The position numbers and the translations under genes were made by a program. A model generated the notes under the pieces. That model saw nothing but the letters and a program-made list of their open reading frames with translations, was not told the DNA's origin and did no database searches. Positions 2,062 through 56,967 of a DNA stretch of 64,000 bases are shown here, in pieces. Within the stretch, counting starts at the first letter, position 1. Every line of letters starts with the position of its first letter. This DNA is from a virus (lineage: Duplodnaviria > Heunggongvirae > Uroviricota > Caudoviricetes). The stretch lies in the IMG/VR virus record IMGVR_UViG_3300042922_001018. One strand, 5' to 3'.

Positions 2062-2637
2062 ATGACGAACTTCCGCATGCACAAGGCGCTCTCCTGGCTG
2101 AAAGACGCTGAAGTGCATCTGGTGACGGTTCACGGGTCACACCTGTATGGCCTGGCGCACGCAGACTCGGACAACGACATGTACACGGTCGCTGACCTCC
2201 CGATGTACCGCCCCGTTCAGTCGGTGGACGGTGACGATGACAACACCATCGTCCCGCTCGATGCATTCTTCGACGCGTGCTGGCATGGACAGCCGAAAGC
2301 GCTCGAAGCGCTGTGGTCGCCGACGGCCGTGAAGAGTCCGCTGCTGGTAGAGTTCTCGCGTACGTTCCGTGTGGGTTCAGGGACGGCGCAGGACTCCTTC
2401 CGCCGCACGCGTGAGCATCTGTTCCGGGGTGAGAACATCAACAAGATGAAGAGCCGTCGTCACGCTCTTCGGCTGGCGGTCCAGCTCCGGTCCATCATGG
2501 AGACCGGCCGTTTCAATCCGGTGCTGAACGACCACACGAAGTTCTTGCTGACTCGTGTCGCAACTCGATACGACACACAGGAGACGTTCATCCCCGTGAT
2601 GAACGCATGGTTCGACTGGGCTTCAGACGTTCACTGA
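2062..2637 (+). CDS. Pol-beta superfamily nucleotidyltransferase
   Basis: GSHLYGLAHADSDND motif. Confidence 0.8.
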   Translation: MTNFRMHKALSWLKDAEVHLVTVHGSHLYGLAHADSDNDMYTVADLPMYRPVQSVDGDDDNTIVPLDAFFDACWHGQPKALEALWSPTAVKSPLLVEFSRTFRVGSGTAQDSFRRTREHLFRGENINKMKSRRHALRLAVQLRSIMETGRFNPVLNDHTKFLLTRVATRYDTQETFIPVMNAWFDWASDVH

Positions 2638-3881
2638 ACTCGGCTCGGCGCGTTCCCGCTGCCCGGCCAGGTGACGTTCTTCTCCAGCTCGCGAGCTTCC
2701 CTCGTCATGTACTCGCGCATTCCCCGTCGCTGCATGACTGTGTGCACGATAGCTCGGTCCGCTTCGATGAGTTCCTTCATCTTCGCTATCCTGGTCGTCT
2801 TCTCTTCGAGCTTCTTCGCGTCGAAAGAGATACCGAGAGGGGTGTCGAGCGCGCTGGTCAACGCATGCGCGAGGGCTGGAGGAGTCGCCGGGTCGGCAAG
2901 AGCTTCGTTGGCTGCGGCAACTGCTTCGGTGGCTTGGACAGCCTTGACGTACCCTTCCCATTCACGGTGGGGGTTGCTGTACTTGTCGTAGTACCAGACG
3001 TTCGTGCTCGCCGCTGAAGTCTGGTCGAGGTCACCGTTCAACACGGCGAGCTTCGCATCGAGAGCATCGAGATGCTCCTGGCTGGGAAGTCCGCGGGTCT
3101 GGAGTCCGGAGGGGAGCCGGTTGTTGTCCTTCAACAAGTCCTCATGGCCGAGCTTCTTGGTCTGCTCGCGCAGCTCTGTGATGCGTTCGACTGTGACCGG
3201 GTTCCGAGGGAACACTACCCACGGAGCCGTGTGACCTTCGGCGATAGATTTCTGAAGGTTCCGCGCCTGCTCCTGGTTCCGCGCCTGAGCCGAAGTCTCG
3301 AACAGCGCTTGGGCTGCGTCACGGTCCACCTTGAAGGCGAAGTTCGCGTAGGTACTGTCTAACGTGTTGTCTTCATCCACAATGAAAGCGGGATGCTTTT
3401 GTAGGTTCTCTACAACGGCGGCAAGACAATCGGAGTCGTGATTGTCCCCATCGTCACAGTAGCAGTACCGGCCACCGGCTCCATTGCGCGTGTGGACCAT
3501 GGCAACGGGAGTACGGCCGGTCCAGCTATCTCCTGCACGCACGGTTGGCCACTTTTCAAGCGGCTTACCAAGGTCGGGCCAGGCTAGCCACGGACCGCTT
3601 TCGAGGCGACCGAAGTCCAACTTCAGCTCGTTGTTGAGATGGTCTTCCATAGTCGTGAGCTGACGCTCACCCAGTGACTCGAACTTCTCCGTCCACCGCC
3701 CGATGATGCTCTGCCCTTCATGGTCGAGCGGTACGTCATCCACGGTGAGGCCGTATCGCTCCAGTGCAGCCACCAGTTCGGGGGCCGCGGTAGACACGAG
3801 TGTTACCTCGGCGGCGGCGCCGGTTCTCTCTGAGAACCTCCCGGCGGTGTCACGCAGGACAGCAGTCTCGTCGAAGGGCAT
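2631..3881 (-). CDS. Leader-family protein (416 aa)
   Basis: Starts MPFDETAVLRDTAGRFSERTGAAAEVTL; start revised from 4115. Confidence 0.8.
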   Translation of the reverse strand: MPFDETAVLRDTAGRFSERTGAAAEVTLVSTAAPELVAALERYGLTVDDVPLDHEGQSIIGRWTEKFESLGERQLTTMEDHLNNELKLDFGRLESGPWLAWPDLGKPLEKWPTVRAGDSWTGRTPVAMVHTRNGAGGRYCYCDDGDNHDSDCLAAVVENLQKHPAFIVDEDNTLDSTYANFAFKVDRDAAQALFETSAQARNQEQARNLQKSIAEGHTAPWVVFPRNPVTVERITELREQTKKLGHEDLLKDNNRLPSGLQTRGLPSQEHLDALDAKLAVLNGDLDQTSAASTNVWYYDKYSNPHREWEGYVKAVQATEAVAAANEALADPATPPALAHALTSALDTPLGISFDAKKLEEKTTRIAKMKELIEADRAIVHTVMQRRGMREYMTREARELEKNVTWPGSGNAPSRVQ

Positions 3882-3889
3882 GTCTCGAT

Positions 3890-3898
3890 TGTAGGCGG
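3890..3898 (-). promoter_or_regulatory. CCGCCTACA element (first of 17 copies seen)
   Basis: + strand TGTAGGCGG begins at 3890, 11648, 14041, 16063, 20845, 22075, 23409, 23975, 32862, 33658, 36100, 36999, 51719, 53182, 55050, 55555, 56801; always 7-8 nt before a minus-strand ATG. Confidence 0.9.
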
Positions 3899-3900
3899 AC

Positions 3901-3929
3901 TTGACGCGTTGCACAAGCCCGAGTAGACT
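3901..3929 (+). promoter_or_regulatory. SigA-type leaderless promoter
   Basis: TTGACG-17-TAGACT-6-ATG(3936). Confidence 0.75.
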
Positions 3930-3935
3930 CATGGC

Positions 3936-4334
3936 ATGGATGACCGCAGGAACTACCTCGACCTCCCCGAGAACCCGACGTTCAAGGAGGCGCTCGATTA
4001 CGCGCTCGCCGACATGTTCCGGGGGCCGGAATCCGCGTTCCCAGTGTATCCGGATGCCGAGCGTTCTACGCACCCGATGTGGAAGGACTGGGATGAGGTG
4101 TCCCGGTACCTTCACGCGGTTCGCGACGGCGAGGATGTGTCGGGGTACGAAATCGTGAAGGTCTTCTCAGTGAAGACTGTGGACTGGACCGAGTTCCTCG
4201 ACACGGTGGCAGGCAACTCCGACCACGATGGCCTCGTTGCGGAGGTGGAGCGCGCCGACGGGTGGACCGGTCGCTACTGCATCGAAATCTCGTTGGCCAA
4301 GGCCATCAGCGCGTTGCAGGAGACACTCCGATGA
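3936..4334 (+). CDS. Hypothetical protein
   Basis: ORF with matching promoter. Confidence 0.7.
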   Translation: MDDRRNYLDLPENPTFKEALDYALADMFRGPESAFPVYPDAERSTHPMWKDWDEVSRYLHAVRDGEDVSGYEIVKVFSVKTVDWTEFLDTVAGNSDHDGLVAEVERADGWTGRYCIEISLAKAISALQETLR

Positions 4335-4516
4335 GCGGGTCGGTGATGGCTCGCTCGGTGGGCTTGGAGACATGGCCGTATTGCTCGACCGTACAGTGCA
4401 TGGAATGTAGCGCGATGCGCGCGGCGGGCATGCCTGCGTCGCCGGTTACTCCACGTCTTCCGCTCCGTGTACGCCTGCGCCTTGCGTTCGAGCGATTCTC
4501 TCGCTAGACTGCTGCC

Positions 4517-4786
4517 ATGATGTACGGCAAGCAGCTCATGGACGCGTTCGACGCCGAACGTCGGGACTTCCTTCGTCGTGACGAGTTCGCGGCGGCTGAG
4601 GTGATGAGCAACATGGAGAGCGCGGTGAACAACGTCATGCACGGACGCCCCGCTCAGGAGATTCATGACTACGCCGTTGACCACATCGGCCGCGTGCTCG
4701 GCGATGGCCGTATCGCGCTCTACCGTGCCGAGAGGGACGCGTACAAGTACGCCCTCGATGTCATCGACTCGGTGCCGGTGCCGTAG
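4517..4786 (+). CDS. Hypothetical protein
   Basis: TTGCGT-17-TAGACT-6-ATG. Confidence 0.7.
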   Translation: MMYGKQLMDAFDAERRDFLRRDEFAAAEVMSNMESAVNNVMHGRPAQEIHDYAVDHIGRVLGDGRIALYRAERDAYKYALDVIDSVPVP

Positions 4787-4794
4787 ACCGGTCG

Positions 4795-5022
4795 TTACTG
4801 CGTTGCAGCGACGCGCACAACCCCGGTGGGAAGTGTAGCGTTGGTCCGCAGCTCGCGCTTCAGCGCGCGCGTGATACGGCGTGCGAGCACCTCGCCTTCC
4901 ATGCGGTCGGCTGCGTGTCCGATAGCCCGGACAGCGCCGTTCACTCGTACGACAGCGCGGTAGCCGCCGTCGTAGAGTCCGTAGACGAGGGAGGTGAATG
5001 TGGGTCGTGGTGTTCTAGCCAT
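4795..5022 (-). CDS. Hypothetical protein
   Basis: ORF coupled to upstream small ORF. Confidence 0.55.
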   Translation of the reverse strand: MARTPRPTFTSLVYGLYDGGYRAVVRVNGAVRAIGHAADRMEGEVLARRITRALKRELRTNATLPTGVVRVAATQ

Positions 5023-5183
5023 CAGGCTAGTGTACCACCGCGGTCATCACTCGCGAGCTTCTCCCAGATAGGCATACCACCTTCGTTCTCCCAGCCGAGT
5101 TCATCGTCAGCCGCAAGCACTCCTGCGGTCGGGCTGACCTTCGAGTCGTCCGGCTCTTCGGGATGGCGCTGGTTCTCTGCCAT
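5022..5183 (-). CDS. Small hypothetical protein (53 aa, not in ORF track)
   Basis: TAGACT-6-ATG; MAENQRHPEEPDDSK... Confidence 0.5.
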   Translation of the reverse strand: MAENQRHPEEPDDSKVSPTAGVLAADDELGWENEGGMPIWEKLASDDRGGTLA

Positions 5184-5192
5184 GCCTCCAGT

Positions 5193-5387
5193 CTACACCC
5201 GGAGGAAGATGCCCTTGCGCGCGAGCCGGACGAGCTTCCGGGCGCGGAGCTGCGCAAGCCAGAGCCACGACGCATAGGTCGTGGCTACCACGGAGCCGTT
5301 GGCGGTGTCGATGAGCTGGATGACGTAGTCGTCGTTGATGTAGCTACCGAACCCGATGGCGGTGGTGTACTGCGGAGAGGTTCCCAT
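5193..5387 (-). CDS. Hypothetical protein
   Basis: TAGAGT-6-ATG. Confidence 0.55.
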   Translation of the reverse strand: MGTSPQYTTAIGFGSYINDDYVIQLIDTANGSVVATTYASWLWLAQLRARKLVRLARKGIFLRV

Positions 5388-5573
5388 ACCCTCACTCTAG
5401 CAAGTGTTGCGCGATGTCGCAAGCCTGTGATACAGTGGCACCATGAACAAGTTCTACTAGGTCATCCCTTACCTGGATTCCGGGTGATGCAAACCGTACC
5501 ACGCTAACCGTAGCTGTACACAGTTTGTTCCAATCACCCATAGCCAATCGGCACCAGACAAAAGGAATCCATC

Positions 5574-6173
5574 ATGACCACGTTCACCCGCACCTCCCGC
5601 CTCGACAAGCGCGACGCTCACCTCATCGCGAAGCACGGCGATGACATCAAGTCTCTCCTCGTAGAGATGCGCGAGCACTCCGCCCGCGCTCCCTTCGACC
5701 CGGCCACTGCTTCGTTCGATGAGATGAAGCTTCGCTTCAACACCATCACTGCGTACGCCGACTCGGTGCTCTCGAAGTTCCCGTACGCTCAGCGTGCCTT
5801 CTTCCCGCACAACCTCTCTGGCGTCCCCATCGCGTTCATTCCGGCTGACTCTCAGTTCATCGAAGTGGTGCTCCGCAAGCGCCCGCACCGCTACGGTGTC
5901 AAGCCCGCGGAGACCCCGTACGAGTACCACTCGGTGCTGCTCCCCGCAGAGCTGTTCGGCGGTCGTATCGGCGCCATCACCAGCTACACGCGGACGACCC
6001 TGCGGTCCAACCGTGACGACCAGGCTCGGAAGGACCGGGAGGCCGCTGAAGCTGAGCAGAAGCGCCTCGTGGCCGAGCGGGACAAGCTGGACAAGGACAT
6101 CGCTGCGGCCGAGAAGAAGCTCGAAGCCATGCGTGAGAAGAAGGAGAAGCTCCCGGTCCCTGCGACGGCGTGA
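5574..6173 (+). CDS. Hypothetical protein with C-terminal coiled coil
   Basis: AAAGGA RBS; strong GC3 codon bias. Confidence 0.8.
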   Translation: MTTFTRTSRLDKRDAHLIAKHGDDIKSLLVEMREHSARAPFDPATASFDEMKLRFNTITAYADSVLSKFPYAQRAFFPHNLSGVPIAFIPADSQFIEVVLRKRPHRYGVKPAETPYEYHSVLLPAELFGGRIGAITSYTRTTLRSNRDDQARKDREAAEAEQKRLVAERDKLDKDIAAAEKKLEAMREKKEKLPVPATA

Positions 6174-6224
6174 TGATGTGATGGGTGAACCGTGCGAGTC
6201 ACATACGGTTCACCCATCACATCA
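6174..6224. terminator. Long hairpin between convergent genes
   Basis: 20-bp inverted repeat TGATGTGATGGGTGAACCGT/ACGGTTCACCCATCACATCA. Confidence 0.65.
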
Positions 6225-6746
6225 CTCCGATAGGGAAGATGCTATCGCGTATTCAATCGCGACCCCATTGGCGTGATATTCCTGGATGTCGCTCTCATAA
6301 AGCCCCGCGCGGATTAGAGCGGCCGCGTATTCGACAGGCACACCCGCGGTATGCAATCTCTCAGAAACTTCTACAGGTGCCGGAAAGCTTGGACCGCCCT
6401 CTTCCATCAGGTGCAAGGCATGTGCAGTGTTCACCGCGCCGATGTACTCGGGCGGCGTAGAAGATGCCATTGCATACTGGAAGTCTACGTCATCGCCCAT
6501 GTGAACAGCTAGCGTGACTGCCGCAACCCTCTCTGGCGTGAACCCATGTTCGTAGGCGTGCTTATATGACCCCGCCCCGTCTCGATGGTCTCCGCCTCCG
6601 CTTGAAAGCTGTTCTACTGCGCCCTCGCGCAGTAGACTCCAGGAGGGAAGGTCTTCTTCGTTCTGTGGCCCGAAGTTATCGGACCACATCCTTTCTTCGG
6701 CGCCTCGGGCGTCCCGTAACCACGCGGAGAAAGGAATCGTGCTCAT
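6222..6746 (-). CDS. Hypothetical protein, GVPxEY family
   Basis: AGVPVEYAAAL...NGVAIEYAIA. Confidence 0.7.
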   Translation of the reverse strand: MSTIPFSAWLRDARGAEERMWSDNFGPQNEEDLPSWSLLREGAVEQLSSGGGDHRDGAGSYKHAYEHGFTPERVAAVTLAVHMGDDVDFQYAMASSTPPEYIGAVNTAHALHLMEEGGPSFPAPVEVSERLHTAGVPVEYAAALIRAGLYESDIQEYHANGVAIEYAIASSLSE

Positions 6747-6791
6747 ATCCCGATGTTACCAGCAGCGTACAGCTCTGGTGATTGAAGCTGG

Positions 6792-7325
6792 TCAGTCTTC
6801 CATCACCAGCTCTACCGCGAACTCGGCAGCGATGCCCTGCGTGAACACGTCGATGATGCGCCCCGATACCGGGCCGTACGCCCGCAATAGCACTGCTGCG
6901 TACTCCGCGGGTACTCCCGCCGAATGAAGGCTCTTAGTCGCGAACGTCGGGTACGGGCTAGGGCTGAACCCTTCCTGTATGAGCCTGTCCTGGTAGGCAT
7001 CATTCACTGTGCGCTGATACGTTGCGGGGATACCGCTTTCGATAGCGCGGAGAAGGTCGCCATCATTACCTTTCCAGACGGCTCGGGACAGCTCTGCCAT
7101 CTCCTGTGAGCGGATGCCCAGGTCGAACGCACGATGGTAGTGCTTGGCTGCGGTGCTGTGAGGCCAGAGCTGACGTGCATCGAGGTAGTTGTCCCAGTCG
7201 GCCAGGCTCCACTTCGGGCGCTGGAAGATGTTGTGACCTACCTCGCGGTACCAGAGCGCTTTCTCGGCCTCGGACACGAGCGTTGCCCATCGGGCGATAG
7301 CGGCTTCTCGCTCCTTCAAGTCCAT
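6792..7325 (-). CDS. Hypothetical protein, GVPxEY family (paralog of 6222..6746)
   Basis: LHSAGVPAEYAAV...QGIAAEFAVEL. Confidence 0.7.
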   Translation of the reverse strand: MDLKEREAAIARWATLVSEAEKALWYREVGHNIFQRPKWSLADWDNYLDARQLWPHSTAAKHYHRAFDLGIRSQEMAELSRAVWKGNDGDLLRAIESGIPATYQRTVNDAYQDRLIQEGFSPSPYPTFATKSLHSAGVPAEYAAVLLRAYGPVSGRIIDVFTQGIAAEFAVELVMED

Positions 7326-7326
7326 G

Positions 7327-7764
7327 TCAAGTCTCGATGACGTTCAGCGCTTCGCGCAGCATCCGGAGTTGGTCTTCTGTGGCTTCGACCGGCGCTTTCG
7401 TCTTGTCGTAGAACTGACGCGACGGAATAACGCCTCGTACACCTCCACGAGGGTCTGCTACGTCCCCTGGGCGCCGTGGGATGAAGTGCCCGTGTGCGTG
7501 CATGATGGTCTGCCCGGCAGCGGGTCCACAGTTCCAGCCGATGTTGAAGTCGGTGACTCCGGCGGCGCGATGAGCGCGAGCGAGAGCGTCGAAGACGCGA
7601 TGGGTGTCGTATCGCTCCTCTTCGCTCAGTTCGAAGTAGTCGGAGCGGTGCTCGACGGGGATGACAAGCACGTGTCCAGGTGCGACAGCATACCCGTCGA
7701 AGACGACGTAGACGGAGCCGAAGCGCTCTCCCGTGACGTTGCAGAAACGGCAGTCAGTGCTCAT
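7327..7764 (-). CDS. HIT family nucleotide hydrolase
   Basis: CRFC; PGHVLVIP; AGQTIMHAHGHFIPR. Confidence 0.9.
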   Translation of the reverse strand: MSTDCRFCNVTGERFGSVYVVFDGYAVAPGHVLVIPVEHRSDYFELSEEERYDTHRVFDALARAHRAAGVTDFNIGWNCGPAAGQTIMHAHGHFIPRRPGDVADPRGGVRGVIPSRQFYDKTKAPVEATEDQLRMLREALNVIET

Positions 7765-7776
7765 GCGCTCGCCAGT

Positions 7777-8031
7777 TCAGGAGAGGACCGCTGCGACTTG
7801 GAAGGCAGCGGTCAGCAGGAACAGCGCCAGGGCGCCAATGAAGATGAGCCGGTTGGAGGCATCCGGGTATCGACGCAACATGATGAAGCTGGTCACCGTG
7901 AACACTGTCAGGCCGATAAGGACGGAGTACAGAGGGGCGCCGATGAGTGCCATGATGATGGTGCCGACGGCCGAGCCTAGCTGTACCCAGTAGAGACCGG
8001 GGACGCGCGGCTTCTCGTTCTGCTTCTGCAT
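7777..8031 (-). CDS. Small membrane protein
   Basis: Three hydrophobic segments. Confidence 0.65.
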   Translation of the reverse strand: MQKQNEKPRVPGLYWVQLGSAVGTIIMALIGAPLYSVLIGLTVFTVTSFIMLRRYPDASNRLIFIGALALFLLTAAFQVAAVLS

Positions 8032-8069
8032 AGCCTCAGCGTATCACATGAGCGCGAGGCTCAGCCGAA

Positions 8070-8504
8070 TCACGATTCGGTGTCGTACCAGCTCTCGATG
8101 TGGAAGAGCAGCGGGCCGTCGATACTGGGGACGATGAAGCTCTCGTAGTCCTCGTGCCAGATGATGCGGCGTCGGTCGCTATACGGCAGCTCCACATCGG
8201 CGTAGTGATACGTGATGACCACGCGCGGGACGTGCTCACCGCTGGACCACCGGACCGGTCCTTCTTCATCATCGTCCACGTAAGCGGTGTGGTCGAGCGC
8301 CTCTTCGTCGTCGCGCGGGATGCCGCGGAACAGCTCTACTCGTTCCCACCCGAGTGGGTGGGCCTTCAGCGTGCGGTCTTCTTCGTTGGGCAACGGGTCA
8401 TCGTCCCGGTCGAAGACGAGGGTGATTTCCCAGTGGTCGGGGTTGAAGTCCAGACTGAACGTCGGCGTATAGATGTAGAGGTAGCCTTCGGCGTTTATCT
8501 CCAC
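8070..8504 (-). CDS. Hypothetical protein (start uncertain)
   Basis: Protein-like 3' part of ORF 8070..8849. Confidence 0.5.
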   Translation of the reverse strand: MEINAEGYLYIYTPTFSLDFNPDHWEITLVFDRDDDPLPNEEDRTLKAHPLGWERVELFRGIPRDDEEALDHTAYVDDDEEGPVRWSSGEHVPRVVITYHYADVELPYSDRRRIIWHEDYESFIVPSIDGPLLFHIESWYDTES

Positions 8505-8604
8505 ATGCCCAACGTCCTCGTGCCCCGCGAGCCGGGGGAGTCCGATGGCCTTGCGGCGGGGGACTTTCGGCAGGCGGGGCACGAGGTCGTAGAACACGAA
8601 GCGC

Positions 8605-9273
8605 TTACTCCTCGGTGTCGTCGAGCGGCTTGATGATGGGTTCCTGCGTGCCGCTGTCGTAGATGTCCTCGACCTCGGGGGTCGTGATGATACGCGAGGC
8701 GCGGTCGAGGGCTGCCTGACCGGTGTAGGTCTCCCCACCCTCTTCGATGACCATGAGGTCGGTGGGGGTGCCGCCGACGAAGGTGTCGAGCACGAACGAG
8801 CGGAACAGGTCAGCGGTCGTCCACGTCTTGTACTCAGCGACCATGTCAATGAGCTTCGACTGGTAGTTCTTGAAGGACGCGCGGTTCGAGATGACCTCGT
8901 CCTGTACCTTCGAGTACATCTCGGTGGTAGCGGTCAGGTCGGGGTAGGCCTCGGCGATGGCCGAGAACATGGAACCGCCCGTGCCCGGTTCCATAGCGCC
9001 GTCGTAGCGCCCCTGAATGGCGTCGGAGAGGATGTCGTTCAACTTCTCGCTCTGACGGTCAGCGATGCCGAGGGTCTCGTTGATGGTGAGGATGTTTCGC
9101 GAGAGTTCGTTCTTGTTGTCGCCGTACTGGGCGACGATGCGGTTCTCGCGTTCGATGGCGCCCCCGCGCGCACTGTTCACGGTGCTGTAGCCGATGATGA
9201 GGGCGATGATGAGAGCGACGGCGATACCGCCGAAGATGATGAGCTTCTTGGTGCGGGGCGAGAGAGCAGCCAT
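8605..9273 (-). CDS. Membrane-anchored helical protein (LemA-like architecture)
   Basis: GAAAGGA RBS; N-terminal TM then helical domain. Confidence 0.65.
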   Translation of the reverse strand: MAALSPRTKKLIIFGGIAVALIIALIIGYSTVNSARGGAIERENRIVAQYGDNKNELSRNILTINETLGIADRQSEKLNDILSDAIQGRYDGAMEPGTGGSMFSAIAEAYPDLTATTEMYSKVQDEVISNRASFKNYQSKLIDMVAEYKTWTTADLFRSFVLDTFVGGTPTDLMVIEEGGETYTGQAALDRASRIITTPEVEDIYDSGTQEPIIKPLDDTEE

Positions 9274-9335
9274 GAGACTTCCTTTCATGAGGTCTGTGTG
9301 AAGAATAGCACGAGTGCGGCGTCGGCCGCAAGTTG

Positions 9336-48171: not shown

Positions 48172-48203
48172 GTGTACGAGCCTATCTGGTCAGGTGCCGC
48201 GTG

Positions 48204-48554: not shown

Positions 48555-48844
48555 GCGAGTGTCTCCTGAGGCGGGGTGAAAGTGTACCCGGCGTAGACGC
48601 GGGTGACCCCGCCATGCCGGTAAGCGTGGAAAGAGACGGCGTCTCGGTTGAACTCGTGGCCGGGGAAGGCACGCTCCGTGCCGTAGACCACGAGGTTATT
48701 CTCCGGGTCGAGCAGCAGCGCGCGGCCTTCCGAAACGTGGGAAGCGAGCAGCGCGGCGAGACGGCGCTTCAAAACGTCGAGCGTATCGCCTGAGTCGCCT
48801 GCGGGAAGCTCAGCCCAGACATGGTACTGGTCACTCTCGCCCAT
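48551..48844 (-). CDS. Hypothetical protein
   Basis: Coupled ORF. Confidence 0.6.
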   Translation of the reverse strand: MGESDQYHVWAELPAGDSGDTLDVLKRRLAALLASHVSEGRALLLDPENNLVVYGTERAFPGHEFNRDAVSFHAYRHGGVTRVYAGYTFTPPQETLA

Positions 48845-49107
48845 CAGACGTAGTAGCCCTTGCCGCCGGGCATGATGATGAGCAGAATCTCGTGCGCGTA
48901 CTCGCGGAACTTGTCGCCCTGGTTCTCGCAGTACAGGCGGATGTAGTCCACCTTCGCAGCATCGGGATACGCGAAGTCAGAGTAGACCCCTTCCTCGTCC
49001 GCAATCATGTCGAGGATGCGCCCGGCGTGGTACGTGAACGCACGCTCGTCCTTGTGCTCGATGCAGTACGCCTCGATGGCGTTCAGGGCGGCGGGGATAC
49101 TGGGCAT
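48844..49107 (-). CDS. Hypothetical protein with internal duplication
   Basis: IxxYC...FxxxAxxILxxI twice; TTGACA-18-TAGACT-6-ATG. Confidence 0.7.
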   Translation of the reverse strand: MPSIPAALNAIEAYCIEHKDERAFTYHAGRILDMIADEEGVYSDFAYPDAAKVDYIRLYCENQGDKFREYAHEILLIIMPGGKGYYV

Positions 49108-49116
49108 GGGTCGAGT

Positions 49117-49332
49117 CTAACGTCGCTTGCGGCGTGTTGTCAAGTGCTGATGCATGATGCCGACTGCGGCAATGAACGTCCACCAGAAATAGACGTAGAG
49201 GAACACGATGATGTACCCGGAACGGTAGTACATGGCGAGAACCATCATGCAGAGCAGCCCGACAGCGCCGAATCGGTAGGCTAGGCGTTCAGGCTTGGAA
49301 ACTCGGTCGCGCCATCTCATCGTGCGGCCCAC
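49117..49332 (-). CDS. Small membrane protein
   Basis: Two TM segments. Confidence 0.55.
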   Translation of the reverse strand: MGRTMRWRDRVSKPERLAYRFGAVGLLCMMVLAMYYRSGYIIVFLYVYFWWTFIAAVGIMHQHLTTRRKRR

Positions 49333-49715
49333 TCACAGAAGTCTTCCATGATGTCCAGCAGCATGTCCCAGCCGTCCTGGTACTCCTTCAAGTCCACTGC
49401 GCTGCGCATCCGCAGGAAAGTATCGTACACGGAGCCGGGAAGCTCTTCGTACTGTTCGTCGGGGCTTGCCGTCCAGGGCCAGGCGAACTCACCCTCATGG
49501 AACAGGTGAATCGCATCCGTGATGCCATCAGGGATGGCTTCTACGAGAGGGATAGCAGCGTCGAGAAACGCCCGGTGGCCTTCGTACGTGATTTCCTCGG
49601 GCCAAGCGACGTTCAGATGCTCCAGCAGCTCTGAAGACAGCTCGTATACGTTCACGCCCGAACGGCGGTCCCAGTCACGAGGGACGCCGAAGCCATCCTC
49701 CGGACCATACGTCAT
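49317..49715 (-). CDS. Hypothetical protein
   Basis: TAGCCT-6-ATG. Confidence 0.65.
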   Translation of the reverse strand: MTYGPEDGFGVPRDWDRRSGVNVYELSSELLEHLNVAWPEEITYEGHRAFLDAAIPLVEAIPDGITDAIHLFHEGEFAWPWTASPDEQYEELPGSVYDTFLRMRSAVDLKEYQDGWDMLLDIMEDFCEWAAR

Positions 49716-49772
49716 ACCGGCAGGCTACCGTGTATGTCGCTGCGAGTCAAGAACACACGGTACGATGGCGTC

Positions 49773-50213
49773 ATGCACCTCGTCAAGGCACCGCAAGAAA
49801 TCCCCGAGTACGCTGACCTCTTCCTTGCTGGAGGTATCAGTGGGACCGGCGATTGGCAAGCGTACGCCGAGCAGCGACTCGCTCACTTCTCCGGCGTGGT
49901 CATCAACCCACGCCGCGACGGTCATCTGGAGCCGGAGTTCGAGGCAGAACAGGTCGCGTGGGAGCATGTAGCCCTACGGGTCAGCGACACCATCCTGTTC
50001 TGGTTCCCGAAGGAGACGCTGTGCCCTATCACGCTCTTCGAGCTGGGTGCATGGTCGATGACGAAGAAGCAGCTCTTCGTCGGGGTCGAGCCGGAGTATC
50101 AGCGGCGGACGAACGTGCTCGAACAGCTTCGACTGGCCCGGCCGGACGTACAGGTGCAGGACACGCTGGATGACACACTACGCCTGGCGTTGCGCACGCT
50201 ACTGCATCAGTGA
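49773..50213 (+). CDS. Nucleoside 2-deoxyribosyltransferase-like protein
   Basis: FLAGGI...DWQ...NPRR...QVAWE...PITLFELG; TACGAT-6-ATG. Confidence 0.85.
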   Translation: MHLVKAPQEIPEYADLFLAGGISGTGDWQAYAEQRLAHFSGVVINPRRDGHLEPEFEAEQVAWEHVALRVSDTILFWFPKETLCPITLFELGAWSMTKKQLFVGVEPEYQRRTNVLEQLRLARPDVQVQDTLDDTLRLALRTLLHQ

Positions 50214-50707
50214 CGAACACCCATGTCGTCCAGCCAGGAAATGAGCTGGTCGGCGACACGTTCAACACGGTCACGGTCTGAGTACGTCTGGAACTCGGTG
50301 GCGATGAACTCGCGTTCTGTTGGCGGCATCTCGGTCAGGAGAATATCGTCGGCCGCTTCCAGTTCCTCGTCAGTGAACGCATCCGCGTACCGGTCATCGT
50401 TCAGGATATGGTCGCCGTCGCTGATGCCGGTGGCGTCGAGAACATGACCGTCTGGTCCGCGAACAGCAGCGTGCGTCCAGCCGTGGCCGTCGGTCGTGAT
50501 GATGACCGGTTCCCATCCGAGGCGCTCGTGCAGCCTTTGGGCGAGATGGTTGCAGTCGCCGCCCGTGAAGTCGCTGATGTCTTGTTCGTCCAGCGGAGAC
50601 TCCTGGAAAGGGATGACTGGGGCGAGACCAACTTCGGGTGTGGCGCCGGTCTTCTCGGCGAACTTCCCGTCGGTCGCCCGGTTGACCTCGGTCTCGTTGA
50701 AGGTCAT
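50207..50707 (-). CDS. Leader-family protein with putative Cys-His-Asp domain
   Basis: MTFNETEVNRATDGKFAEKTGATPEVGL; FTGGDC...WTH...LDATG. Confidence 0.8.
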   Translation of the reverse strand: MTFNETEVNRATDGKFAEKTGATPEVGLAPVIPFQESPLDEQDISDFTGGDCNHLAQRLHERLGWEPVIITTDGHGWTHAAVRGPDGHVLDATGISDGDHILNDDRYADAFTDEELEAADDILLTEMPPTEREFIATEFQTYSDRDRVERVADQLISWLDDMGVRH

Positions 50708-51711
50708 GACGCACCGCCTCGGTCACCCTGTCGGTAACCCGGCCACGGCTCAGCCTTCGCCACACCGACGAACTTCGTCTCCGGAGTTCCACGTAGCTCC
50801 GTGTCCGAGGAGGCCGATACCACGAGACCCTTCGCCCCTTCTTCGAATTCGATGCGCGCGCGAGCGCCTTGTGCGATGACGATTGTCGGGTCGGACCCCT
50901 TCGGCACCTTGACTGTCGCGGTGGTGTCGAACGAGATGAGGACCGTGTCGGTGCCAGATGCTTCGATGGTGGGCGAGCCGCCCGAGAAGAGCGAGGCACT
51001 GGCCCCGTGCCCAGAAGCTTCTGCATGCCTGAGGCGTGTGTTCCGCCCCGCTTCGGTGGAGTCACCGAAGCCCGAGATGGCCGCGACCGCCTGAGACACA
51101 GCGCGCTCGTAGTTGTTCTGCGTCGCGAGTTCCGCCGCACGGGTGGCGTACCCGGCGGCGAGGTGCTTGTACCGACGGTTGGCATCCCGCTCGGAAAGCT
51201 CGCCGTCCATGTAGAGATTTTCGGGGGAGGTGTGCGCCTCGAACGCGTCGGCCAGGTCGCTCAGGTTACGAACGAAACCGAATGAGCCGCTCTTGGAGGG
51301 GCGGGTTTCTTCCTCCGGCTGGGGTTCAGTTTCGCGGCTGGCGCGCTCCGCGATGTAGTCATCGACCACGGCATCGGATAGGCGGACCTCTCCTTCGTAC
51401 TCGTGGAGGAAGAAGTCGTTGACCAGACCGTTCCGAGCGATTTCGGGATACAGGCGCGCATAGCTCTGGTCCTCGCGCATTGCCTTCACCTCGTCGAGCG
51501 TCCAGTTGTCCAGCACGCCTTCCACGTCGAACGCATTCGACTCGTCGTAGCCGAAGTACCCGCTCTCACCGTCGATGTCGAAGATGTTGCGACGGATGGA
51601 TGCGGTGACCGGCTCACGCTCAACAGTCAGGCCGACTTCCGGGGCTGCTCCGACCTTATCGGTGAACTTGCCGTCCGTTGCGCGAGGGTGGCCCTGGGAA
51701 TCGAAACTCAT
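50704..51711 (-). CDS. Leader-family protein
   Basis: MSFDSQGHPRATDGKFTDKVGAAPEVGL; motif at 51719. Confidence 0.8.
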   Translation of the reverse strand: MSFDSQGHPRATDGKFTDKVGAAPEVGLTVEREPVTASIRRNIFDIDGESGYFGYDESNAFDVEGVLDNWTLDEVKAMREDQSYARLYPEIARNGLVNDFFLHEYEGEVRLSDAVVDDYIAERASRETEPQPEEETRPSKSGSFGFVRNLSDLADAFEAHTSPENLYMDGELSERDANRRYKHLAAGYATRAAELATQNNYERAVSQAVAAISGFGDSTEAGRNTRLRHAEASGHGASASLFSGGSPTIEASGTDTVLISFDTTATVKVPKGSDPTIVIAQGARARIEFEEGAKGLVVSASSDTELRGTPETKFVGVAKAEPWPGYRQGDRGGAS

Positions 51712-51749
51712 GCCTCCGTGTAGGCGGAGAATCGTGGTAGCATGAGTTC

Positions 51750-51881
51750 ATGACAGAAACAGTCGAGCAGTCGCCTTCCGAACGCCGTCTCTTGTGGAGT
51801 GTCATCACCGTGCTGGGTGTCGCTGCGGTCGGCCTGTACGCGAGCGGCATCTCCATTGCCCTCCGGTTGGCCGCACTGTAA
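51750..51881 (+). CDS. Small membrane protein (43 aa, not in ORF track)
   Basis: TAGCAT-6-ATG; one TM. Confidence 0.5.
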   Translation: MTETVEQSPSERRLLWSVITVLGVAAVGLYASGISIALRLAAL

Positions 51882-51897
51882 CCGCCATCAGTCTCGG

Positions 51898-52524
51898 TTA
51901 GACCTTGAAGCGTCGGCCTAGACCGTACGCTTCCACTTCTGCGGGAGCAACCAGCTCTAGGTCTCCAGACGCCGAAATGACCTTCCCGGTCGCTCCAGGC
52001 TCGAACACGACTCGGATGGCAGAGTTCTTGCCCACAGCCACAAGGCCATGAGCGCCCTGTTTCACCGTAATGACGCCACCTGTCGTGCGTACCAGAGTCA
52101 CAGTCACGTCCTCATCGAACTCGTCTACCGGCTGGCCTCGGTCATACGCCACAGCGGTCTGTGACTCATGATGAGTCCACGTCTCCTTGAACCCGCCGCC
52201 CGGTGTACGCGATGCGTCGCCCTTGATGAGACTCGATGCCATGAATGCGGCGTGACCTGCGTTTTCCTTGTCGGCCAGCTCGATGAGGCGCGTGGTCACA
52301 TCGCCTGAGAAGGTGCGATTGAACCAGTCCATCGTTCCCCCGTCTTCGCAGCTTCGCTGCATCCGTCGGTAGCTCTCCAGCAGGTTCGGGATGTGGTCGA
52401 TGTCTTCGTACGAGCGAGACCGTGAGGCGGCCGGTTCGAGCGATACGTCTGGCCCAGCGCCTTCCTTCGGGCCGAACCGACCATCCAGTTCGCGGGGCTG
52501 CTTCTTGCTTCCGAAACCCAGCAT
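51898..52524 (-). CDS. Leader-family protein (variant leader)
   Basis: QPRELDGRFGPKEGAGPDVSL; paralog of next. Confidence 0.8.
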   Translation of the reverse strand: MLGFGSKKQPRELDGRFGPKEGAGPDVSLEPAASRSRSYEDIDHIPNLLESYRRMQRSCEDGGTMDWFNRTFSGDVTTRLIELADKENAGHAAFMASSLIKGDASRTPGGGFKETWTHHESQTAVAYDRGQPVDEFDEDVTVTLVRTTGGVITVKQGAHGLVAVGKNSAIRVVFEPGATGKVISASGDLELVAPAEVEAYGLGRRFKV

Positions 52525-53174
52525 TACGCCTCAGACCGCTCGCCGTAGCCGTAAGACTCCACTTCTGCGGGAGCGACAAGCTCCAGGTGGTCAGATGCCG
52601 AGATGACCTTGCCCCGAGCACCTTCCTCGAACACGATACGGACCTTCGCACCGTCGTCCACTGCGATGAGCGCGTGAGCGCCGCTCTTGATAGTCACGGT
52701 TCCACCGGACGTACGATGGAAGGTCAGGGTCGCGTCTGCGTCGTACGTGTCATCGGGCTGCCCACCCGTGTATGCGGTCACCGGGTTGGAGTGCTGTTTC
52801 CGCCAGTCTCGCTTGAAGCCGTTCGGGGTACGGCTTTCCTGGCCGCGGGGCAGCTTGGAGGCGATAGACGCCCACTTCTCGAAGTTGTCCTCGTCAACAA
52901 GCTCGATGATGCGGGTGGCAGCGTCTCCGGAGAAAGTCTTATCGACCCAGCCCTGGAGTGCGCGGTCGCTGCGTTCTCTTGCGGACTTCGAGTGATTCTG
53001 GAACGCCGAGTACACGTCCTCGACCGTGTTCAAGTCCATGTATGTGCGAGAGCGAGAAGGTCGCTTCTTCAGCGTGGTCCCCGGCGCCGTGAGCGAAACT
53101 TCTGGCGAGGCACCGGTCTTCTCAGTGAACTGTCCGGTGCTCGCACGCGGGTGGTCAGAAGGGTCAAACGACAT
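52524..53174 (-). CDS. Leader-family protein
   Basis: MSFDPSDHPRASTGQFTEKTGASPEVSL; motif at 53182. Confidence 0.8.
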   Translation of the reverse strand: MSFDPSDHPRASTGQFTEKTGASPEVSLTAPGTTLKKRPSRSRTYMDLNTVEDVYSAFQNHSKSARERSDRALQGWVDKTFSGDAATRIIELVDEDNFEKWASIASKLPRGQESRTPNGFKRDWRKQHSNPVTAYTGGQPDDTYDADATLTFHRTSGGTVTIKSGAHALIAVDDGAKVRIVFEEGARGKVISASDHLELVAPAEVESYGYGERSEA

Positions 53175-53196
53175 GCCCTGATGTAGGCGGAGACAC

Positions 53197-54030
53197 CTAC
53201 TCCGTGAGGAGTAGAGCGAAGTCCCGTGAGATGGGCGGGTTGAGCAGGTCGCCGATGGAACCGCGGCCGAGTACAGTCAGACTCCGCGCCCAGTCACCGT
53301 CGATGCCGCTCGCTTCGATGCGGCGGAGATGCCGTTCGTCAAGGATGGCGGGATGGAAGTACGCAGCGTTCTCATCAGGATGCTCAGGGTCATCCATGTA
53401 CAGCGGATGGGCATACCAGCCTGCCTTCGGTTTCGACAGCGGTGAACCTTGGATACGCAAAAGGGTGACGCCACCGATGCGTACGAGCTGCCCTACGACT
53501 TCACGGCCGAGAACGAACTCACCGTTCTGCTCCTTCGCCGCAAGAATCGTGTCAGCGAAGTACCGGATGCTTTCGGCTATCGTCATCGTCTTCAGCCACG
53601 CGGGCGTGTACGCGCTACGGCGGCGACGTGCGTACTCTCGGCGAATCGGCCCGAACATGGTGCCTTGCTCATGGAGTTCGCGCCAGTCACCAGGATTGAA
53701 AGTCCCTGCGTCCCACGCGGCTCGGACAAGGTCTCCGGGGATGCCGTCGCGGATGGCCTGGAGCGCTCTGGGGATGAGATACCGCGCTCCGTCAGGGTCG
53801 CCCTTGCGATAGACGACTGCGGGGTGCTTCGACCATTCCGCGCGGTCCGCGGTCGGGAGCATGTCCATCCCTACGTCAACCGGGAGGGCTACCAGGCGGT
53901 CAGGCCCAGGGCGAGAGTTCTTGACCTCATCGAACTGGTCAAGGCGGTTGTGTACCGCCCACGCTGTTGCTTTCTGGGGGTTCCCGCCTTCGGCGAAAAC
54001 TCGACGTGCTTGTGCTGGTACCGCGGCCAT
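53197..54030 (-). CDS. Hypothetical protein
   Basis: TAGACT-7-ATG. Confidence 0.7.
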   Translation of the reverse strand: MAAVPAQARRVFAEGGNPQKATAWAVHNRLDQFDEVKNSRPGPDRLVALPVDVGMDMLPTADRAEWSKHPAVVYRKGDPDGARYLIPRALQAIRDGIPGDLVRAAWDAGTFNPGDWRELHEQGTMFGPIRREYARRRRSAYTPAWLKTMTIAESIRYFADTILAAKEQNGEFVLGREVVGQLVRIGGVTLLRIQGSPLSKPKAGWYAHPLYMDDPEHPDENAAYFHPAILDERHLRRIEASGIDGDWARSLTVLGRGSIGDLLNPPISRDFALLLTE

Positions 54031-54067
54031 ACCCTACAGTCTAACGAGGGCATGGCCGCGGACTGAC

Positions 54068-54451
54068 TCACATGTCAGCGAGCTGGTTCACCGCCGGGTC
54101 GAACAGACGCCACTCGAACGCGAAGTCAGCCAGGTCGAACCACTCGTCGTCTCCCTCGAAGACGACATTCGTGCCCTGCGCAGCGACGACCGTGTAGATG
54201 GTCACGTCGCGTGTTTCCGGGTCGATGATGACCAGTGGGCTGCCGACGAGCGATGCGGTCGCTTCCTCCAGAACGCGGGCCACGTTGGCACGGTGCTTGG
54301 GGCTGCCGGACTCCCGCGCAATGAGCGCGAGCTGAGTGAAGATGAACTGGTCGATGGGGATACCCTTGGCCATGGCCAGAGCACGCGCCCGCTTGACGGC
54401 GCGGTTGGTGCGGACATCGGACTCGTAGAAGGGTTTGAGGTCTGTAATCAC
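54068..54451 (-). CDS. Hypothetical protein
   Basis: TAGGCT-7-GTG. Confidence 0.65.
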   Translation of the reverse strand: MITDLKPFYESDVRTNRAVKRARALAMAKGIPIDQFIFTQLALIARESGSPKHRANVARVLEEATASLVGSPLVIIDPETRDVTIYTVVAAQGTNVVFEGDDEWFDLADFAFEWRLFDPAVNQLADM

Positions 54452-54492
54452 GCCCCCTAGCCTACACGACGTTCCCGATGACAGCGGCTATG

Positions 54493-55041
54493 TCAACCGC
54501 GCAGCTTCTCCTCTGAAACCGTCTCGATGAGGCCGTCGGCTTCATCTCCGAAGGCGGAGTCCAGGAACTCGATAGAGTCGTCATCTCCCTCGGCCGCGGC
54601 TCGCGCGATGACAGCGAGAGCTTCCTCTGTCGTCTTCGGCGCCTCGCCCGCGGTGTAGATGGAATCCTCTCCCGCGTACAGCATGGTCACGGGTGTGCCA
54701 TCATGCGGGCTGGAGCTAGCGATGGCAGTGACACCCCGCTCTTCGACGAGTCGGGCAAGGCGCGTCTTAGCGTGACCGGTGAGGCGCGGGTCCGTGATGG
54801 GGTTGCGCGAACTCGACGGCTCCAGAGTCAGCAGGTCCGGCACCTGGAAACCGAAGTTCAGTGAAGCCAGGTTGAAGGAACCAGAGAAGTCGTCCGGGAG
54901 GAGACCGGACTCCGGTGCCGACCCGCGCTTCGCGGCGAACTTGCCGTCGCCCTTACGGGGCTGGGCAGTTGCCTGCGCGTATCGGTCAGCCGCGATACGG
55001 TCAAGGTTCTCACGGAGACTCTTGGGGTTCTTGTCGGTCAT
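54493..55041 (-). CDS. Leader-family protein (motif displaced ~20 aa)
   Basis: QPRKGDGKFAAKRGSAPESGL; motif at 55050. Confidence 0.75.
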   Translation of the reverse strand: MTDKNPKSLRENLDRIAADRYAQATAQPRKGDGKFAAKRGSAPESGLLPDDFSGSFNLASLNFGFQVPDLLTLEPSSSRNPITDPRLTGHAKTRLARLVEERGVTAIASSSPHDGTPVTMLYAGEDSIYTAGEAPKTTEEALAVIARAAAEGDDDSIEFLDSAFGDEADGLIETVSEEKLRG

Positions 55042-55079
55042 GCCTTCAGTGTAGGCGGACCGATGAGCTTCCGCAAGTC

Positions 55080-55547
55080 TCAGAAGCCTCGGACCTGTTC
55101 CCAGAATGAGCGCTTCGGGTTGACGATGCTCTGGTACTCGTCACCGAACAGCTCGCGAGCGATTGCGTGCTCCTCCTCGCCGACCCGGTTGTCGCGCTCG
55201 TAGGCGCGCGCCGCGAGAACGACATCGGCAATGGCCTGGTCTGCGGTTCCGTAGGCTCCGCTCTCCGCGTCCTCCGCCTTCTTCTCGCTCTGCTTCTTGC
55301 CCATCTCTGCGAACACGATGTCATGGCGGTCGAGGAAGGACCGAATGCGGACCGTGTCCGAAGGCGTCAACCGTTCGTTTTTGGCTACACCGCCGCGCGG
55401 CAGCTTGAACACGTCCGTGACTGGCCGCATGTCTCGGCGAGTAGCTGGCGCCGAATCAGAGCGAAGCGAAACCTCCGATGGCAGACCACGCTTGTCCGCG
55501 AACCGGCCTCCGGTATCGCGAACGGTGTCAGCCTCGTTGAATGTCAT
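55080..55547 (-). CDS. Leader-family protein
   Basis: MTFNEADTVRDTGGRFADKRGLPSEVSL; motif at 55555. Confidence 0.8.
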   Translation of the reverse strand: MTFNEADTVRDTGGRFADKRGLPSEVSLRSDSAPATRRDMRPVTDVFKLPRGGVAKNERLTPSDTVRIRSFLDRHDIVFAEMGKKQSEKKAEDAESGAYGTADQAIADVVLAARAYERDNRVGEEEHAIARELFGDEYQSIVNPKRSFWEQVRGF

Positions 55548-55566
55548 GACCCGCTGTAGGCGGTGG

Positions 55567-56136
55567 TCACCGCCCTCGAAGCCGGTCCCCCAGGGAAGGA
55601 GCGGGCGGCGACACGATGGCATCGTAATCAGCACCGAAGACTTCACGGGCCAGCTTGTCGCGGTCCTCGTAGTACCTGCGGGACTCTGGGAAGTCACGCG
55701 CCTTCCGCGCATTGTAGATGAGGTTGTAGAGGGTGTACCGAGAGCCGTGATGACCTTCGACGGTACCGGCTTTCAGGATACGCCCATCTGCGAAGCCGTA
55801 CTTCGCCTTGTAGAAAGCGCCGTCTTCGGTTGCGTGCCCTGTAGGCCTGATGAATACGGTGAACCCGGTCCTCTCCACGAAGTCTTCCACGCGAGCCACA
55901 TCACGCTCGCTCATGCCGGACTTCCTGTACAGCACGGGAACGGGGTAAGACTCCGCATCCTTCTCATACCCGAGTGGGCGCCGGAGCTTGCTGCCCAGCG
56001 ACGCTTCCGGTGCTTGCGGACGGCTTCCGTCCACAGCGCGCAGTGGTTCGCTGAGCGATACCTCTGTCGCCGAGCCGGTCTTCTCTGAGAAGCGTCCAGT
56101 CGTATCGCGACGAATCGCCGACTCATTGAATGTCAT
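55567..56136 (-). CDS. Leader-family protein
   Basis: MTFNESAIRRDTTGRFSEKTGSATEVSL. Confidence 0.8.
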   Translation of the reverse strand: MTFNESAIRRDTTGRFSEKTGSATEVSLSEPLRAVDGSRPQAPEASLGSKLRRPLGYEKDAESYPVPVLYRKSGMSERDVARVEDFVERTGFTVFIRPTGHATEDGAFYKAKYGFADGRILKAGTVEGHHGSRYTLYNLIYNARKARDFPESRRYYEDRDKLAREVFGADYDAIVSPPAPSLGDRLRGR

Positions 56137-56792
56137 CGCAGACCAGCCCCTACTCGTGCGTTGAGAATCTGTGCTCGGGTGTACTCCTGGATGGCTTCGA
56201 TAGCTGTGCGCCGCGCTTCCCAGTCCTCATCTACGGTGTACTTCGCCGTCACACCCGAAGTATCGAAGAGCATGTCCAGGTCATCCCACAGGTCACGCTT
56301 CTCCGCGTGGGTGAGTTCCACCTGTTCGCCGTCTACCCACCACTCGTTCATCGAGTCAGGAGCCGAAGAATCAATCAGGGCGGGGCCATCAGTTCGGTGA
56401 AGCTTGCCCTCGCGGTAATACTCACCGTCACCGGGCGGGGACCAGGCGAGACGGACTGCGGGAGCGCCCTCGCGGTGCAGCTTGCCGTCCTTGAAGAAGC
56501 TCTGCTTGACTGTCGGGAACACCTTCAGAGGCGAGATAGCGACCTCATCGTAGCCGGGGTTCTCACGATGGGCGTCCGCCGCCTCGTTTGCAGCCTTCGC
56601 AGACGAGAAGTCCCCGCCGTCCCAGCCACATCCTTTGCACCATGCGCGGGTCCAGGAGACCCGGACCTCGCAGACGATGCCGTCGCCGCGGTCGATGACG
56701 CCAGGCTTCAGAGCGACCTCAGCGGGCGCGCCGGTCTTCTCGGTGAACTTGCCGTCTGTGGCCCGACTGACCTCAGACTCTTTGAATGTCAT
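56133..56792 (-). CDS. Leader-family protein with CxxC and GKLHRxxGPA repeats
   Basis: MTFKESEVSRATDGKFTEKTGAPAEVAL; motif at 56801; related to 11956..12669. Confidence 0.8.
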   Translation of the reverse strand: MTFKESEVSRATDGKFTEKTGAPAEVALKPGVIDRGDGIVCEVRVSWTRAWCKGCGWDGGDFSSAKAANEAADAHRENPGYDEVAISPLKVFPTVKQSFFKDGKLHREGAPAVRLAWSPPGDGEYYREGKLHRTDGPALIDSSAPDSMNEWWVDGEQVELTHAEKRDLWDDLDMLFDTSGVTAKYTVDEDWEARRTAIEAIQEYTRAQILNARVGAGLR

Positions 56793-56967
56793 GCTTTCAG
56801 TGTAGGCGGAGTCGCGTGCTGATAGCAACGCTCGCCTTCAGATTTCACCGCGCGGTTGCAGTGCCACATACGGCCGAGGTCAGCACGGCTGTGTTTTCGC
56901 GCTGCGCTGAGACCACCGTAATGGCATGGCGCGCCGCAGACATGACGCGGTGGCGAGTACGCGCGCA

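Follow-up and report, generated by a model that had tools for sequence, protein, structure and literature searches.

A shared N-terminal peptide on 25 diverse proteins of a plasmid-like actinobacterial replicon, related to a leader motif of phage effector modules: a candidate address for proteins delivered with mobile DNA

The DNA analysed here is a stretch of 64,000 nucleotides filed as the Caudoviricetes virus record IMGVR_UViG_3300042922_001018 and referred to below as the window. It carries on its minus strand 25 open reading frames (ORFs) whose products share one short N-terminal peptide, here called the tag, and then continue into different bodies (Table 1). These ORFs had been noticed in the original prediction, which was made from the sequence alone and regarded the peptide as a leader that loads the proteins into a virion. 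A profile hidden Markov model (HMM) was built from the 25 window tags and searched against the six-frame translation of the window. The matches were exactly these 25 ORFs, all on the minus strand, with scores of 42.9–62.3 bits; the best non-member reached 5.5 bits, and the plus strand gave no match. The claim that 25 diverse minus-strand proteins share a single leader is thereby confirmed. All 25 starts are ATG codons of open ORFs of 144–416 amino acids (aa) that contain the motif, and the tag begins at residues 1–5 in every ORF except the one that starts at 55041 (Table 1).

The tag is about 30 residues long, with the consensus M-[TSA]-F-[DN]-E-x2-([HQ]-P or V-x)-R-x3-G-[KRQT]-F-x-E-K-x-G-x2-P-E-V-x-L. 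Its R, G and F, described in the original prediction as an invariant R-x3-G-x-F, were found in 25/25 tags, as was the second G, and the K in 24/25. The downstream element had been given as [ED]-[VIL]-x-L, and this holds for most tags but not for all of them: P-E-V-x-L is strong across the window without being universal, and deviating versions occur in the ORFs starting at 36092 (E-T-S-I), 55041 (E-S-G-L), 12669 (ending in F) and 21570 (ending in V). Across the 25 ORFs each invariant residue is written with three to four synonymous codons, and therefore selection acts on the tag peptide, not on the DNA or RNA. An origin of the tag conservation at the RNA or DNA level was largely excluded by this codon analysis.

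Similarity ends after the tag, as had been stated: an all-against-all BLAST of the 25 ORFs linked only seven paralogous pairs, the bodies being otherwise unrelated, and the tag is a portable element. Searches of the tagged bodies with Pfam (20 bodies) and PHROGs gave no significant family save DUF7226, and the 416-aa tagged body had no match in the ESM Atlas. The earlier description of the leader as non-hydrophobic, on proteins with no obvious transmembrane segment, also proved correct: transmembrane-like segments were found in 0/25 proteins, the maximum Kyte-Doolittle 19-mer score over whole proteins being 0.12–1.36. The tag is charged and polar, and has neither the hydrophobic h-region of a Sec or Tat signal nor the twin arginine of the latter. 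Most of the tagged proteins (22/25) are acidic, with an isoelectric point (pI) of 4.1–5.9. AlphaFold2 predicted the tag alone as coil, as would be expected of a linear recognition motif.

Table 1. Tagged ORFs of the window and the box found upstream of most of them (positions on the 64,000-nt window; bits, score of the tag HMM).
Feature	Coordinates	Strand	Evidence and remarks
Tagged ORF, 416 aa, V-x-R-D variant	2631..3881	-	HMM 50.7 bits; tagged orthologue in Oerskovia island
Tagged ORF, 238 aa	10924..11640	-	HMM 52.8 bits
Tagged ORF, 237 aa	11956..12669	-	HMM; body paralogous to ORF 56133-56792
Tagged ORF, 265 aa	12712..13509	-	HMM 59.1 bits
Tagged ORF, 171 aa	13518..14033	-	HMM 57.0 bits
Tagged ORF, 172 aa, Q-P-R variant	14469..14987	-	HMM 49.4 bits
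Tagged ORF, 341 aa, H-P-R variant	15030..16055	-	HMM 59.5 bits
Tagged ORF, 149 aa	19399..19848	-	HMM; body paralogous to ORF 50207-50707
Tagged ORF, 328 aa	19851..20837	-	HMM 56.4 bits
Tagged ORF, 233 aa	20869..21570	-	HMM; body paralogous to ORF 21570-22067
Tagged ORF, 165 aa, example in the original prediction	21570..22067	-	HMM 60.2 bits
Tagged ORF, 341 aa, very acidic, pI 4.1	22376..23401	-	HMM
Tagged ORF, 226 aa, DUF7226 body	32174..32854	-	HMM; Pfam
Tagged ORF, 205 aa	33033..33650	-	HMM 60.7 bits
Tagged ORF, 245 aa, body start Cys-rich	35355..36092	-	HMM 55.1 bits
Tagged ORF, 146 aa, basic	36117..36557	-	HMM; paralogue of ORF 36557-36991
Tagged ORF, 144 aa, basic	36557..36991	-	HMM 59.6 bits
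Tagged ORF, 166 aa	50207..50707	-	HMM 62.3 bits; tagged orthologue in Oerskovia island
Tagged ORF, 335 aa	50704..51711	-	HMM 56.1 bits
Tagged ORF, 208 aa	51898..52524	-	HMM; paralogue of ORF 52524-53174
Tagged ORF, 216 aa	52524..53174	-	HMM 56.4 bits
Tagged ORF, 182 aa, tag at residues about 19-50	54493..55041	-	HMM 45.4 bits
Tagged ORF, 155 aa	55080..55547	-	HMM 50.4 bits
Tagged ORF, 189 aa, basic	55567..56136	-	HMM 56.4 bits
Tagged ORF, 219 aa	56133..56792	-	HMM; tagged relative in Oerskovia island
Box CCGCCTACA, 17 copies	3890..56809	-	7-8 nt upstream of an ATG

The original prediction had proposed to scan an HMM of the leader over this genome and over other phages; besides the 25 clean matches in the window, the core of the tag was indeed found in phages. 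A search of 1.84 billion proteins (cluster representatives) with the tag profile retrieved 590 proteins that fall into two classes: small proteins with the tag within residues 1–30, and giants of 700–4660 aa with 3–14 internal copies of its first ~20 residues (50–104 bits). In the giants, the copies lie at the N-terminal edge of every module, the very N-terminus included. These giants are polyvalent proteins; one of them contains an ART-PolyVal domain and others sigma-70, SNF2, RelA/SpoT or FtsK domains, and giant tagged proteins are encoded directly after portal genes. The residues just upstream of the internal copies are lineage-specific, and no universal cleavage site could be made out at that position. 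The core, as it reads in these copies, is [FW]-[DN]-E-x2-H-P-R (or V-x-R-D)-x2-G-[KRQ]-F-x2-K; the first 20 residues of the window tags, [FW]-[DN]-E-x2-[HV]-[Px]-R-x3-G-[KRQ]-F-x2-K, match it. The window tags conform to the membership pattern [FW]-[DENV]-E-x2-[HV]-[P/x]-R-x3-G-[KRQ]-[FW] with a basic residue three positions on, and both the HPR and the V-x-R-D variants are present in the window and in distant phages. The P-E-V-x-L half is missing from the phage copies, which have a Gly-rich linker instead; a second half of the form [DE]-[AV]-x1-3-L is common to the actinobacterial group described below.

The distribution of the core was then followed at the DNA level using a degenerate pattern with about one chance match per 1.4 × 10^11 positions. 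It detected more than 118 loci in IMG/VR. In the species genomes it matched 69 loci, against a chance expectation of about 9. Where the ORFs are small, viral or genomic, the core lies at residues 1–35. Portal fusions make up 24 of the 67 tagged viral proteins and come from four Pfam portal families, the order being portal, tag, and then a Zeta toxin, topoisomerase IB, NUDIX or ART domain (an example is the IMG/VR locus L029, 1306–3876, plus strand). An XkdF prohead protease forms the end of four of the 67, and MuF, LPD3, PBECR or InPase is present in others. Stand-alone small tagged viral ORFs are situated among terminase, portal, MuF and minor-capsid genes, and in a Christensenella genome a tagged array adjoins a Terminase_6N gene. 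Carriers of the core are elements of many bacterial phyla and of one archaeal metagenome-assembled genome (MAG). A tblastn search of a phage collection with the 31-aa tag gave no match, the query being too short for this to count as evidence. No description of the core was found in the papers on polyvalent proteins, jumbo phages or MuF toxins, nor by literature text search, and the tag seems to be undescribed. Since the core sits on fusions with portal, MuF and prohead protease and on their neighbours, a cargo address is a reasonable function for it in phages, where, judging by gene context, it probably marks proteins of the head interior.

The element that contains the window is a different matter. 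A contig of 450,372 bp in two JGI metagenomes (Ga0456364_0000048 and Ga0456365_0000040) encodes proteins identical in every letter to those of the window. Its coordinates are permuted and reversed between the two, which points to a circular replicon that is complete. About 105 kb of it was read, namely the window, 10 kb to its left, 20 kb to its right and a further stretch, L126. The left flank holds three tagged genes, which encode an ArdC-N + MPTase-PolyVal protein, a SprT-like zincin (both 8–10 kb from the window) and a CCA/HD enzyme; domain families of polyvalent proteins are thus present on the replicon itself, in the tagged ArdC-N + MPTase-PolyVal protein. These three genes flank a 660-bp non-coding gap, bounded by the tagged CCA enzyme on one side and a 352-aa ORF on the other. 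The gap holds five copies of the DnaA box TTATCCACA, all perfect and four of which form two inverted pairs, about 6.7–7.0 kb left of the window start (left stretch L198, 2985–3290); from its sequence, it is an oriC-like replication origin. The DnaA boxes, together with the tagged ArdC-N/MPTase and SprT proteins, give the replicon the appearance of a plasmid, apparently a circular one of actinobacterial origin. No capsid, portal, terminase, tail or protease genes were found in the ~105 kb. Stretch L126 carries 15 further tagged ORFs behind a block of SSB, membrane-protein and M23-hydrolase genes.

Relatives of this replicon were found in genomes of cultured Micrococcales (Oerskovia, Isoptericola, Microbacterium and Kocuria), which contain arrays of N-terminally tagged ORFs with 12–23 profile matches each. 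The island of Oerskovia enterophila (contig C3, 38–110 kb) has tagged orthologues, an SSB, a PDDEXK nuclease and a wall hydrolase in common with the replicon, the pairs of tag plus body being 28–33% identical. As the tag is kept on orthologues whose bodies are only ~30% identical, and always leads a module, it is not part of each fold. The Oerskovia island encodes a DnaE of its own, as well as an SNF2 helicase and a VirB4-like AAA_10 ATPase that each have an apparent intein, and a VirB4-like AAA_10 ATPase lies in or near the tag arrays of three of the four genomes (Oerskovia, Isoptericola and Microbacterium). The inteins of the Oerskovia ATPase (L201, 14717–19000, minus strand) and helicase (L201, 6426–9983, minus strand) apparently include a LAGLIDADG endonuclease. 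In database searches the tagged ArdC matched best on Curtobacterium megaplasmids of 546–608 kb. One of these, plasmid D40 (607 kb), bears a clear tag at least once and a degenerate one on its ArdC; it also encodes a giant FtsK protein and an orthologue of the VirB4-like ATPase. According to precomputed Pfam matches, this orthologue also contains an intein with LAGLIDADG. In these actinobacterial genomes, Phage_portal, Phage_capsid, Terminase_6C and TerL_ATPase gave no match, and the only Terminase_6N match was weak and on another contig. Replic_Relax was likewise without a match in the related genomes, and type IV coupling protein (T4CP) matches, found in two of them, were located elsewhere than the arrays. 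Ten metagenomic loci had no tag within 8 kb of their VirB4-like genes, which is uninformative, as the arrays lie further off.

The tagged genes of the window also have an upstream element in common. The box CCGCCTACA was observed 17 times at 7–8 nt 5' of an ATG, compared with 0.34 expected in the window (e.g. the site at 22075–22083). All but one of the copies head tagged genes, the remaining one preceding the untagged ORF 23398–23967, and nine of the 25 tagged genes are boxless. The genes behind the box have neither a leader nor a Shine-Dalgarno sequence, and therefore the box looks like a private promoter of leaderless mRNAs.

The untagged genes of the window encode enzymes of conflict or metabolism: PARP-WGR, ThyX, PLD, R2K ATP-grasp, NADAR, HIT, RlaP, HAD_SAK and GNAT. 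The WGR and PARP catalytic-domain protein (458 aa, 46561–47937, minus strand; PARP E = 8e-25) lies in the middle of this accessory region, and the ThyX resembles that of Streptomyces phages. An 872-aa protein (38490–41108, minus strand) has homologues on large plasmids, annotated as TerD-family or MXAN_6230/SCO0854 RING-domain proteins, and further ones in jumbo phages (XacN1, SCTP-2, Rhodococcus phage Weasels2). The 20 kb to the right of the window are tag-free; they contain a block (L216, 2042–9009; L217, 5328–7299) with a MoxR-like AAA_5 ATPase and its DUF2201/VWA partner, a SIMPL protein, a dCTP deaminase/dUTPase, a signal peptidase S26 and a DsbA-like thioredoxin.

We propose that the tag is an address or handling signal for effectors that are delivered together with mobile DNA into the next cell, the simplest reading to unite the data and one to which we assign a probability of roughly 40%. 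Its first ~20 residues are the module leader of the polyvalent, portal-, MuF- and protease-fused effectors of phages, which here heads stand-alone, mostly small acidic proteins of a plasmid-like replicon. A component of the DNA-delivery machinery of the element would recognise the tag, and anti-defence and host-takeover proteins would be marked by it for transfer with the DNA; the route would be the capsid in phages and, more probably, a conjugation-type (VirB4-like/FtsK-like) apparatus here. Recognition by a receptor, co-transfer and any processing of the tagged proteins are what we infer. The original idea of a virion-loading address is thus reasonable for phages, in which the core is tied to portal, MuF and protease genes, but fits this plasmid-like replicon poorly: virion loading is doubtful here, and delivery by a virion is less likely than by an apparatus of the conjugation type. 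What the replicon shows is the effector-module leader in an extreme variant, spread over separate genes and probably not viral. In its most specific form, which we consider rather unlikely, the proposal would make the tag an N-terminal secretion or translocation signal of a VirB4/FtsK-like conjugation-type apparatus on actinobacterial megaplasmids, one that injects more than 100 separate anti-defence and takeover proteins into recipients and is also read in phage heads; such a signal would imply a common receptor or principle for loading the proteins that accompany DNA.

Several observations weigh against delivery as the function of the tag. With an alignment of three actinobacterial orthologues as the query, neither a metagenome scan nor a search of 5.8 billion proteins recovered a VirB4-like gene of the 450-kb replicon, and MOB-suite classifies the Curtobacterium plasmid as non-mobilizable. 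Conflict enzymes without a tag (PARP-WGR, NADAR, HIT, PLD and R2K ATP-grasp) are numerous in the window. To our knowledge, the substrates of type IV secretion systems (T4SS) have C-terminal or internal signals, none of them N-terminal. It is also hard to explain how one motif could be read by machines as unlike as a capsid or portal and a T4SS, and the common denominator could instead be a post-entry step or proteolytic processing.

These last two possibilities were considered along with others. The motif may be a docking and cleavage element for a protease that the mobile element itself encodes: a prohead protease in phages, and in this replicon the MPTase or SprT zincins. It would free or activate modules, and on stand-alone proteins it would be a removable pro-peptide. 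The position of the motif at every module boundary of the polyproteins and between portal and effector agrees with this, as do the tagged zincins of this replicon and the zincin-mediated processing of polyvalent proteins proposed by Iyer et al. 2017 (PMC5512222). However, at the copies that lie at residues 4–16 of polyproteins and at residue 3 of more than 100 stand-alone proteins, a cut before the motif would free only a few residues; the residues upstream of the internal copies are heterogeneous across lineages and offer no universal site; and unrelated protease families would need to read one 20-residue motif, so that we regard processing as an unlikely function. We give the same low standing to a role after entry that is independent of transfer, in which the tag would bind a conserved hub or nucleic acid in the entered cell (or the donor), or set the localisation or timed half-life of a takeover regulon. 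A universal partner would fit the retention of the motif across many bacterial phyla and one archaeal MAG better than lineage-specific machines do, the tag is predicted to behave as a linear motif, and the private promoter-like box suggests one co-regulated programme. Nevertheless, no candidate hub was found, and such a role leaves unexplained why the motif in phages is concentrated on portal fusions and head modules rather than on early genes.

It is quite unlikely, in our view, that the replicon is a jumbo phage whose effectors are brought into the prohead by the leader, much as the capsid-targeting sequence (CTS) does in T4, with a prohead protease then removing the leader after the conserved P-E. 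This would be consistent with the tight link of the core in phages to portal, MuF, prohead-protease and terminase genes, and with the phage-like content of the window (many small orphan ORFs, ThyX and the 872-aa protein with jumbo-phage homologues). Yet no capsid, portal, terminase or protease gene lies in the window, its flanks (10 kb left, 20 kb right) or L126; a search of IMG/VR did not return the window DNA; the replicon has a DnaA-box origin and ArdC; its relatives combine a VirB4-like ATPase with arrays in and around which Phage_portal, Phage_capsid, Terminase_6C, TerL_ATPase and Terminase_6N gave no match; and the phage copies lack the P-E-V-x-L half. Both the cut at P-E|V-x-L that was originally suggested to remove the leader and the tie of the leader to the T4 CTS are drawn by analogy. 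Finally, the conserved 5' coding stretch might serve leaderless translation or promoter function, the peptide itself being irrelevant, and 16 of the 25 tagged genes do start 7–8 nt past the box without a leader. We hold this to be highly improbable: the invariant residues vary in codon, nine tagged genes have no box and one boxed gene has no tag, and unrelated elements of very different GC content have this peptide in the interior of their giant proteins.

Should the tag prove to be a delivery address, sequence would suffice to list which proteins are sent ahead by mobile elements with their DNA; most of these are uncharacterised, small and acidic, and they are likely to inhibit host defence. 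The novelty lies in the setting of the leader motif, a plasmid-like replicon. No case so far is as extreme as this replicon and its relatives, with dozens of separate tagged genes or more. The occurrence of the tag outside recognisable phages bears on how polyvalent proteins originate, possibly through tagged modules becoming fused, and on whether a single principle of recognition underlies both capsid loading and the conjugative transfer of proteins. Cultured carriers are available in Oerskovia enterophila DSM 43852, Curtobacterium sp. MCBD17_040 (plasmid D40), Kocuria dechangensis and Microbacterium sp. oral taxon 186.

Among known systems, the polyvalent proteins of Iyer, Burroughs, Anand, de Souza and Aravind 2017 (PMC5512222) come closest. 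They have the same core before every module, draw on the same domain repertoire (ArdC-N, MPTase-PolyVal, SprT, ART and GNAT), are found in phages and plasmid-like elements alike, and have the same proposed biology, that of effectors delivered with DNA. Polyvalent proteins combine 2–15 effector domains in one polypeptide, whereas the window proteins, of 144–416 aa, have one body each; the 25 separate genes resemble disaggregated polyvalent modules in place of one giant polypeptide, and this lineage has added the second tag half, x2-P-E-V-x-L. A text search of the polyvalent-protein paper (PMC5512222) found no mention of the leader motif, and neither did one of the paper on MuF polymorphic toxins (Jamet et al. 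2017, PMC5576092). In the portal-, MuF- and prohead-protease-fused effectors to which these toxins belong, the motif separates a head-internal anchor from the effector. Stand-alone tagged ORFs occur in the same head modules, whereas no portal, MuF or protease gene was found in the ~105 kb read here.

The CTS of the T4 internal proteins IPI-III and Alt is about 10 residues long and is cut by gp21 after L/I-x-E. Like the tag, it is a short non-hydrophobic N-terminal peptide on unrelated cargo, and the two may be regarded as functional analogues; however, they have no sequence similarity, the tag is three times longer, P-E-V-x-L is unlike the gp21 site, and T4-type head genes were not found in the part of the replicon that was read. 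The T4SS substrates of conjugative plasmids (relaxases, ArdC, TraC1 primase, PsiB/SSB) differ in that their known signals are C-terminal or internal, in contrast to the common 30-residue N-terminal peptide of the present proteins, for which transfer is proposed. The likeness lies in having proteins for anti-restriction and DNA handling that travel with the transferred DNA, in the presence of ArdC among the tagged proteins, and in the VirB4-like ATPase of the relatives.

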